IMG/VR virus record: IMGVR_UViG_2617270945_000015
Length of the DNA: 33,207 nucleotides
DNA from: a virus
Lineage: Duplodnaviria; Heunggongvirae; Uroviricota; Caudoviricetes
Strand: one strand, 5' to 3'
Shown: piece by piece, positions 15,001 through 18,000 of the stretch
Layout: every line of letters begins with the position of its first letter
Position numbering within the stretch: the stretch's first letter is position 1
Program-made: the position numbers

Positions 15001-18000
15001 AACCAATAATTTTCGGGAAATCGCGGAAACGTCAACCAACTATCCGGTAATTCCTAGTGAGGTGTTGTCCGCAATCCTGAAGGTTGCCAAGATTCGTGCC
15101 GATTTCGATGATTTTGACGGTGACAGGCGAGGTATCGGTGATTGTCTGGATGAGGCTGAGCAAGAGCTTATCGTTACCATTAACAAATATGCCAGTCAGT
15201 TGGCAGCAGAACCGATAGCGACTAATGACGTTCGAGAGCAAACAGCCGTTCCGCCAGTTCCGGTAACTCCGGATGGTTGGATAAGCTGTAGTGATCGAAT
15301 GCCAGAAATGGGAGAGCGACAATACTATGTGTTAGCAGCTGACTTTAAAAACAACTACCCACCAAGCATCCCCAACACTCAGGTCGGCGTATATGGCGAC
15401 TGGTTTAATGATGGCAATCCCACTTGGGATGACGGTGATGGCGAAGACCTGCATCTCAAAGAAGTAACCCACTGGATGCCGCTACCAGAACCGCCGAAGG
15501 AGGTACGCCAATGACCTAGCCTGAAGCATTTGCAATTGTAGTGGCTGCCATTTTGATCGCACTGATTGTTTTTGCGATTTGCCGCTGGGGGTAAAATAGT
15601 TCACCTGCATGGAGATTTGATGCCGGGGAATTGTGGGGGAGCATTCAAACCTCTCCCCTTCCCGGTTAAAGACTCCATTGCTTTGCGGTCAGAGAGATAC
15701 ATCAGCTTCATCAGCTTCATCAGCTTCATCAGCTTCATCAGCTTCATCAGCTTCATCAGCTTCATCAGCTTAATGAAACGCATAGATCCGCCATGCTTTT
15801 TCAGCAAATACGCTGCCATTTGCGCAACTTTTTCTTCATTAAACATAAATCGGCTCTCTGTCTCACATGAAACACTCTTTCTGACTATATGTTAATAGCT
15901 CCGGTTATTACAGGTTAATGTGTGTTTATTTCTTAATCAGCCCCGCACTTCCGTACGGGGCCATTTCTGTTAATCCACTCCCACTTTTTTGTTGTACTCG
16001 CGGTTAAACCGATCCACGGCAACCTTCATATCCCGCTCTACCGATTTCACCATCGCCGCCTGCTGCGCCAGACTGAGAGAACTGTCGGCATAAATGGCAT
16101 CGCGCTGTTTGCGCAAATCCTTCAGTCTCTTCCGGGTATCCTGCATAAGCCCGTTCATCAACAATTTTCCGTTGTTCTCGTCAATGAACGCCGTTCTTTC
16201 TGCACCGGTCAGACTCTTCAGCTCTGCGTGATACTGCGCAACCTCTGTCATCCGGTCGTACATCTTCTGCTGGTCTGCATACGGCATCACCTCACCCGAA
16301 ATTTTCCCCAGGAAGGGCACCTGCTGTTCCGGTATATCAATACCATTCAGCGATTTCACCGCCGCATCCGTGGTTTTGGAAATGAAGCGCCCTGTCCCTC
16401 CGGAGATATAGTCAATCCAGAATTTCAGCGATTCCGGTGTGATATCCACCGCGCCGGGACGATACTGGCTGCCACCTGAGAACGCATTCAGCCAGGATGC
16501 AAACGCCTTGTACGCTTCTGGCGTTGAACGTCTTCCCAGCTGGCTGTCAGGTTTTGGTGTACCAAACGGCATGTTCTCCTGGTAAATCTGCGCCCCCATG
16601 AAGTTTTCATTCATGGCAAGGTTCGCAAACGGACGCAGAATGGTCGGTGCTGCGTTTTTCAGCAATGCCCCCGACAACGTTTCCGACGTCTCGCTGCCGA
16701 TCGGGCTGAATGCTCCCAGGATACCGCCGACAACATTACCGGCAGCACGTGAAGCAGTCAGGTCGCCCGCTGCCACACCTTCAGCTGTATGACCAAGCAG
16801 GAAGAACACGTTGTACCCGTAAGGCAGAGGAATACTCCAGTACTCACCGGCCTTGCCCCCGAACATCGATTTCATGATGACGAGGTTACGCTCTTTCACA
16901 TGAGACGGTACTTTGTCGTACCAGTTACCCCCGTCATCATCCTCCCCCGCCACACTGCGGTTAAGCGAGCCAAGCAGATAACCCGCTCCCACAGCTGCAA
17001 GCACGATTTTCTGCGGTACATTGAGATTCTTCCAGCGAAGGCGCTCCAGTAACGGCCCGTCGCCATTAAGATGTCCGAGCGTTCTCACCAGGTTTGCGGT
17101 CCCCTGAATGCTGGCGTTGGCAAACATGTACAGCGAGTTCATCAGCATCCCCTGCTCACCACGACGGTTAAAGTTCACCGTCATGTTTTTGGCAAGAGAC
17201 GCCGCCTGCTGGCGTGACAAACCGGCATCACGGGCGTGTTTATAGGCAGAAAGACGCAGAGCGTTTTCAACCGCGCCGTTGGCATCCTCGACCAGGTTCA
17301 GGAACGAATGCCATGCACCGATACTCTGGCCTTTCCATCCGCCCTTCGCCAGCGACACAAGGCGATCCATTTCCTTCTGCTGGCCCTCAAGGTCACCCAT
17401 GTTAAACCAGCCGGTTTTACCTCCGTCCTCAACAAACTCTTTCCACACTTTCTGCCACTGTGCGCCTTTGCCCGTGAGGGTTTTACCCCGCAGACTTGCG
17501 TATACGGCTGACATGGCGGAACGGCTGTCTTTCACCACAGCCAGCGCGGATAAGTTATCCAGCCCTTTCAGTTTGCCGTCGCTTCTTCCCTGCTCAGCCT
17601 TCAGGTTCATCACCGCAGTCTGCACGTCACGGATGAAGTTACTGACCAGAAATTCCGGGTTATACGACGTGTTCACCGTTGCCAGGAAGCGGTTAACTTT
17701 CCCCAGCGTACGGATTACGGCGTTACTGGTTTCCGGCCCCATGTTCTTCATCGCACGCATCAGGCGCGGATCATGAAGTTTAATGTAGTAAGTTTTGCCG
17801 TCCTTTTTGGTGGTGAAGTAGCGATCCGCCATCATTGCCATCGGCACAGGGCGCTCGACAACTTCGCGAATGGTTTCACCAGTTTCCTGGTCCTTGCGCT
17901 CTGCAATCACACGCATTGTATCCGGTCTGTCATCAGTGAATACCTGCCAGTAATCCTTGTCGGGATTATCCTGTACCAGTTTCAGGAAGGCGTTACCCAC

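Follow-up and report, generated by a model that had tools for sequence, protein, structure and literature searches.

How does a perfect tandem repeat come to lie inside a prophage reading frame, and what does its expansion mean for the gene that carries it? The stretch of DNA analysed here (hereafter the window; 33,207 nucleotides, IMG/VR record IMGVR_UViG_2617270945_000015) raises the question with eight consecutive copies of a 9-bp unit. The original prediction, made from the sequence alone, held that the array expands the core motif of a Panacea-like N-terminus and that its copy number is probably variable between isolates.

A perfect tandem array within an open reading frame

Positions 15700-15771 of the window consist of CATCAGCTT repeated eight times on the plus strand with zero mismatches, as read from the raw sequence and in agreement with an independent repeat search. 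Tandem Repeats Finder gave the array a score of 144 (period 9, 8.0 copies, 100% matches, no indels), while the second-best array anywhere in the 33-kb window scored 62. A perfect period-9 array of 72 bases in 33 kb cannot have originated by chance. Read on the minus strand (15700..15771; Tandem Repeats Finder and regular-expression count), the array is (AAGCTGATG)x8, or (AAG CTG ATG)x8, in frame with a predicted 81-aa ORF at 15846..15601 (minus strand, stop codon included). It encodes KLMx8 as residues 26-49 of that ORF, whose full sequence is MFNEEKVAQMAAYLLKKHGGSMRFI(KLM)8YLSDRKAMESLTGKGRGLNAPPQFPGIKSPCR. The array starts 75 nt into the ORF, a position that is not in a promoter.

The predicted eight perfect in-frame copies (KLM x8) were thus confirmed by Tandem Repeats Finder, the raw sequence, and the ORF frame. 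The coordinates first given, 15701-15772, pointed to the right array in a register one base late, and for that reason the last unit as first written, atcagctta, includes one flanking base. Two plus-strand ORFs across the array (ISF..., 109 aa; SAS..., 46 aa) were rejected as genes, being unsupported by the annotations of relatives.

Prophage setting

Positions 1-11014 are E. coli chromosome carrying rspB, rspA, ynfA, ynfB, speG, ynfC, ynfD, ynfE, and ynfF, based on Pfam matches and synteny with strain cM8a. From about 11.0 kb on, the sequence is that of a 933W-like (Sepvirinae) prophage, which, like the one in cM8a, sits in ynfG. The prophage-chromosome junction lies at about 11015-11420, directly after ynfF, with ynfG interrupted; cM8a has the matching junction arrangement, annotated with a truncated '4Fe-4S binding protein'.

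The repeat-bearing ORF is flanked by a convergent DUF551 gene (14588..15514, plus strand; Pfam DUF551, 1.2e-19) and, upstream, by the gene for a 2784-aa polyvalent virion-type protein (15970..24324, minus strand; Pfam LPD38, LPD5, LPD1, and MuF_C). Relatives annotate this giant protein as an LPD5/LPD38 domain protein, and it bears an HEWFH zincin-like motif. Directly beyond the giant gene, the family has a site at which accessory genes vary: 933W has hokW/sokW and a ygiW-like gene there, and E. coli G1/2 has ibrB and a PAPS reductase gene. In strain G1/2, a Panacea gene stands directly after the giant gene with no other partner, so that the intact Panacea protein may have some relation to the giant protein.

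A GC-rich hairpin (GCCCCGcac ttcc gtaCGGGGC, 15940-15961) lies between the giant-gene stop and the region upstream of the repeat-bearing ORF and is kept in all aligned relatives; it probably serves as the terminator of one convergent unit or of both, and our consensus scan did not pick it up. At the other end of the locus is a small plus-strand ORF (15511-15594; MT*PEAFAIVVAAILIALIVFAICRWG*) that has a strong Shine-Dalgarno sequence (GAAGGAGG, 15496-15503) and overlaps the DUF551 stop as ATGA. Its codon 3 is TAG for TGG in the window, POCJ13, cM8a, and FORC_069. In other relatives the frame is intact and specifies a hydrophobic peptide of 27 aa that is not annotated (MTWPDAFAIVGVAMSIALIVFAICRWG in Stx2a_WGPS2, MTWPEAFANVGTVMAVVLVVYSICRWR in VT2-Sakai); the peptide is conserved despite DNA that is only ~74% identical.

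The reading frame as a remnant of a Panacea gene

Megablast against complete E. coli genomes returned two allele classes sharing the 5' end of the ORF: a full-length class in 18 genomes and a truncated class in 43. The full-length class encodes a 174-aa 'Panacea domain-containing protein', for example in E. coli G1/2 (locus L004), that matches PF13274 SocA_Panacea at 2.4e-19 (70.7 bits against a cutoff of 25.7, profile positions 2-112). The window is collinear with this gene from the giant-gene stop past the start codon to ...AAA GCA ATG GAG T (15672), and beyond that point the alignment with L004 diverges completely. The same boundary appeared in the genome search: Megablast matches of the full-length alleles start at query base 98, which is window position 15672, and 15672-15925 shares 98% DNA identity with them. 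The Panacea-homologous part of the ORF is therefore placed at 15672..15846 (minus strand) by the DNA alignment with L004, Megablast, and BLASTP, and comprises 37 codons (MFNEE...KAME) plus seven extra repeat units. In BLASTP, ORF residues 10-58 aligned to residues 1-28 of the 174-aa protein with 28/28 identical outside a 21-residue gap, and that gap corresponds to the seven extra KLM units.

The placement of the repeat in a Panacea-like N-terminus was borne out by this identity to an E. coli prophage protein with a significant PF13274 match, and so was its placement in a K-L-x-K-L-x-Y motif, as close homologues read KLMKLLY here. Close full-length homologues have ...LKLMKLLYL(A/S)DR..., and one has KLLKLMKLLY. 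The PF13274 model begins at the L/M just ahead of the last KLx, and the repeat unit is the KLx of the KLxKLLY motif at model positions 1-6, so that the array appears to grow at the N-terminal edge of the former Panacea domain. One PF13274-positive homologue from the protein search (P0016) has the sequence HLKLLKLMKLLYLSDRE, in which there are three KLx units and not two. This suggests an independent gain of a unit by the motif in a Panacea protein that is apparently intact.

What lies past the junction is missing. The GPV motif (MNKGPVLS in L004) falls beyond 15672, where the window ORF runs into unrelated residues, and ~84% of the Panacea protein and coding sequence is gone, GPV core included. 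GPV is strongly conserved in Panacea, forms beta2 of the fold, and lies beside the central helix alpha2, around which the other helices are packed (Kurata et al., PMC8832971). The 81-aa ORF had no Pfam match at E<=1 and no NCBIfam match, and the 60-, 63-, and 66-aa remnant alleles had no Pfam match even at E<=10. In RefSeq, the 63-aa product of the 2-copy allele is labelled a hypothetical protein and the 66-aa product of the 3-copy allele a 'Panacea domain-containing protein'. No toxin-sized co-oriented ORF adjoins either the stump or its full-length counterpart in L004; roughly half of PanA homologues lie outside detectable TA-like pairs (PMC8832971). The homology of the retained part indicates that the ORF descends from a Panacea gene, and from these alignments we class it as a 5' stump of that gene fused to junk and not as a member of the Panacea family.

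A single-sequence AlphaFold2 model of the ORF placed residues 22-60 in one helix (pLDDT 81-89). The proposal that the repeat extends a helix instead of turning the gene off therefore holds, on the weak evidence of this model, for the helix, while the contrast it drew is moot because truncation had already switched the gene off.

Junction tail and gene decay

The remaining part of the ORF is a junction-derived tail (15601..15671, minus strand; 23 codons and the stop) that is unrelated to Panacea, as delimited by the divergence from the full-length allele. Positions 15490-15675 accompany the DUF551 module in Shigella phages POCJ13 and 75/02 Stx. The 23 tail residues thus appear to derive from DUF551-module sequence, and the truncation was probably created by recombination of a DUF551-containing module into the Panacea gene. 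A homopolymer in the tail (C5, read as G5 on the plus strand at 15635-15639) varies in length between strains and shifts the tail frame: it is C4 or C5 among the IMG/VR loci and 1 bp shorter in O104:H4. Database variants of the tail give proteins of 48, 55, 63, 91, and 103 aa with unrelated C-termini, among which the 63-, 91-, and 103-aa forms result from homopolymer re-framing.

The same gene is damaged elsewhere in the group. Phages of the 933W type have an internal deletion in it, with the left breakpoint inside the single AAGCTGA|TG unit. These Stx phages retain the promoter region and the first ~27 Panacea codons joined to the last ~20, a remnant (L006 about 1501-1666 against window 15759-15925) that most records leave unannotated. 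Every 'full-length' 174-aa allele (the 1585-1612 region of L004 and IMG/VR loci L024-L027) has the change CAA>TAA in the ninth codon of the MFNEEKVAQ frame, and its annotated protein starts at the internal M10, whereas truncated alleles retain the ancestral start. By these comparisons, the Panacea gene has been damaged independently three times in Sepvirinae, through truncation, the 933W-type deletion, and the codon-9 TAA. The suggestion that the repeat may be no more than a sign of gene decay is the part of the earlier interpretation with the best support, as the gene is cut after codon 37, fused to unrelated DNA, without a Pfam or NCBIfam match, and variable in its tail frame.

Copy number among related prophages

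We counted the unit in complete E. coli genomes, INPHARED phages, PLSDB plasmids, IMG/VR, JGI/ENA metagenome contigs, and GTDB representatives. All full-length alleles seen had one copy (17 Megablast rows, five sampled alleles, and five IMG/VR contigs), as did the truncated alleles of POCJ13 and 75/02 Stx and one more IMG/VR contig. Two copies were the count for 42 of the 43 complete E. coli genomes that carry the truncated form, the O104:H4 outbreak clone among them, and for 13 IMG/VR contigs; the corresponding 63-aa protein occurred on at least 1000 contigs. Larger arrays were rare, with three copies in E. coli cM8a, five in metagenome contig ERZ1034626 NODE-1117 (L008), and six in both IMG/VR UViG 2609460218_000005 (L007) and metagenome contig ERZ773139 NODE-5601 (L009). 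The eight copies of the window, a count as assembled, were the largest number found and were seen in the window only.

The repeat units were perfect in every allele, and the alleles differed by whole units at one site. The comparison across related prophages proposed with the original prediction thus returned differing and not identical counts, and copy number was variable between isolates as predicted, with 1, 2, 3, 5, 6, or 8 whole perfect units in otherwise near-identical DNA. The exact 81-aa protein was absent from a collection of 15 billion proteins. Among the listed members of the protein clusters (15 of the 21 in cluster 1), the nine retrieved all had two copies, and 3-copy members may be hidden beyond these nine. 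GTDB species-representative genomes had no match to the pattern for at least two copies, and the plasmid collection held 933W-type remnants only, without the repeat. The prophage copy in cM8a (L029 13145-16671) contains many frameshifted or partial early genes (antA, ead/Ea22, DUF551) that are intact in the window. These lesions may be real decay or long-read assembly error, a distinction that bears on how far the 3-copy count can be trusted.

A single expanded sublineage

A table of 30 alleles identified a lineage-marking SNP at 15873, with G on the minus strand. G was present in 4/5 alleles with at least three copies, i.e., all those covering the site, as L007 stops short of it; every 1- and 2-copy allele covering the site had A on that strand. 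The flanks of the expanded alleles were at least 99.8% identical to the window, gaps aside, with 3 mismatches in 3.6 kb for cM8a, 5 in 8.2 kb for L007, 20 in 12.5 kb for L008, and 14 in 9.0 kb for L009. L007 also spans ynfE and ynfF and is therefore integrated at the same site as the prophage of the window. One sublineage thus has 3, 5, 6, 6, and 8 copies, four different counts among five members; these five are the only expanded alleles known and, depending on how the strains are related, may not be independent of one another. The stump alleles show ~2 substitutions in 111 nt, and sequence divergence is low (at least 99% identity).

Origin of the array and alternative explanations

We consider it very probable that the array is a neutral slipped-strand VNTR in the dead stump of a prophage moron gene for a Panacea (PanA-like antitoxin domain) protein. 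VNTRs change by replication slippage on direct repeats, with instability rising with array length. The seed would have been one or two identical AAGCTGATG units within the KLxKLxY motif, which lies at the N-terminal edge of the Panacea domain, and two identical units would be a weak slippage seed and stable. A ynfG-integrated sublineage with minus-strand G at 15873 would then have reached three units, and from three units on, repeated whole-unit changes would have led to the 3, 5, 6, 6, and 8 copies, the presumed direction of change being expansion from two. The frame would never have been broken because the unit is 9 bp, and nothing would select against expansion, nor would a cost be expected, because the gene had already lost most of its coding sequence together with the GPV core. 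The recurrence of the 2-copy allele in the 42 genomes and 13 IMG/VR contigs is consistent with length-dependent instability. That the full-length alleles have not expanded is no proof of selection by itself, since a single unit gives no slippage seed. Judged by analogy, the overall pattern (whole-unit, perfect, stable at two copies, volatile at three or more, frame kept) matches replication slippage.

An assembly or sequencing artefact, with a shorter true allele of, e.g., two or three copies, would account for the eight copies without biology. Assemblers can mis-count tandem repeats, the 81-aa protein is absent from the protein collection, and none of the other sequences found has eight copies. 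We nevertheless consider an artefact very unlikely: a 72-bp array is shorter than an ordinary short read and is normally spanned, the units are perfect throughout, and the flanks are clean. Because the site has 3, 5, 6, and 6 perfect copies in independent assemblies belonging to the same sublineage, we take the expansion as real biology. A role of the array at the DNA or RNA level, as iteron-like binding sites, a structured element, or a spacer affecting neighbour expression, is extremely improbable. It would draw on the eight identical direct repeats located between convergent transcription units, yet most relatives have one or two units and the array is therefore not a conserved feature, and its 9-bp spacing is off the helical repeat. 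Folding of 15690-15782 gave 4-bp AGCT stems only (z = -1.53 against shuffles) and no inverted repeats were found at the array, so hairpin-driven instability and a structured element were both rejected, and hairpins are not needed as an explanation because single-strand folding is no better than that of shuffles. A promoter or terminator role was likewise rejected, as there were no promoter-like sites in 15400-16100; the consensus scan of that interval returned two terminator-like matches inside the ORF, upstream of the array, at chance level.

Selection on a protein product is the remaining alternative. The stump could encode a functional mini-protein, e.g., an N-terminal Panacea-helix decoy or modulator, whose length and activity are tuned by the in-frame repeat in a NeuO-like manner. 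The ORF is open in all 1- to 8-copy alleles, the 63-aa form is widespread, the structural model draws the repeat region as one unbroken helix, and in NeuO itself the number of heptads increases catalytic efficiency (PMC3046976). The open frame is no evidence of selection, however, because a 9-bp unit keeps any frame open automatically, and the broad occurrence merely tracks the prophage. Of the 174 residues of the annotated protein only 28 are left, with no GPV core and no Pfam or NCBIfam family match; the frame of the C-terminal tail differs between strains, giving 48- to 103-aa variants; and there is no promoter-like site upstream. Such a functional product is therefore unlikely. A more specific form, in which the stump is translated and the cationic-hydrophobic (KLM)n helix has a length-dependent activity (membrane- or protein-binding toxicity, or PanA/PanT interference), is highly improbable; if true, repeat expansion in one prophage sublineage would be turning an antitoxin fragment into a new mini-protein.

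Significance of the locus

Under neutral slippage, the locus holds little mechanistic surprise, gives no sign of function, and is of a familiar kind. Its value would lie in being a clean natural example of threshold-dependent slippage, in which two units are stable and counts of three or more differ between nearly identical prophages, and in illustrating the stepwise decay of a prophage moron gene. The array could also serve in typing, where its size would be a marker of high resolution within the ynfG-integrated 933W-like prophage lineage. The 66-aa 'Panacea domain-containing protein' of RefSeq is a warning for annotation, as the label persists despite the lost domain.

Comparison with known repeat loci and Panacea proteins

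In the contingency loci of Haemophilus, Neisseria, and Campylobacter, repeat units that are not divisible by 3, or that alter promoter spacing, toggle expression. The present locus resembles them in having a hypermutable repeat tract within a reading frame, but a 9-bp unit cannot toggle and all 1- to 8-copy alleles keep one frame, so the locus is not a phase-variation switch. The neuO poly-psi VNTR of the E. coli K1 prophage CUS-3 has a 7-bp unit whose slippage toggles the frame (phase variation) of an intact gene (PMC3046976). Both loci are prophage-borne E. coli genes in which a VNTR prone to slippage lies early in the coding sequence and adds peptide repeats N-terminally; they differ in that the 9-bp unit here brings no switching and the host gene is truncated and without family signal.

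The 37 non-repeat N-terminal residues of the stump link it to PanA/Panacea proteins (DUF4065, PF13274; SocA-like; PMC8832971), as they come from a Sepvirinae PanA-like gene. Unlike PanA/Panacea antitoxins, the stump is missing ~84% of the protein and has no GPV beta-strand motif and no Pfam match; its neighbours are the convergent DUF551 gene and the gene for the 2784-aa polyvalent protein, with no toxin-sized ORF beside it. A full-text literature search with the repeat dimer in either orientation found no paper, so the locus appears to be undescribed.

The closest parallel is with the MLVA-type VNTRs of E. coli and Shigella, for which replication slippage is generally accepted and many of which are found within reading frames and have unit lengths divisible by 3. 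No MLVA scheme containing the present repeat unit was found. Unlike those VNTRs, this repeat lies in a prophage pseudogene remnant and is therefore confined to strains with that prophage lineage. Like them, it is a short, perfect, head-to-tail repeat with whole-unit differences between near-identical genomes, and with identical units and such differences the array appears to belong among slippage-type VNTRs.
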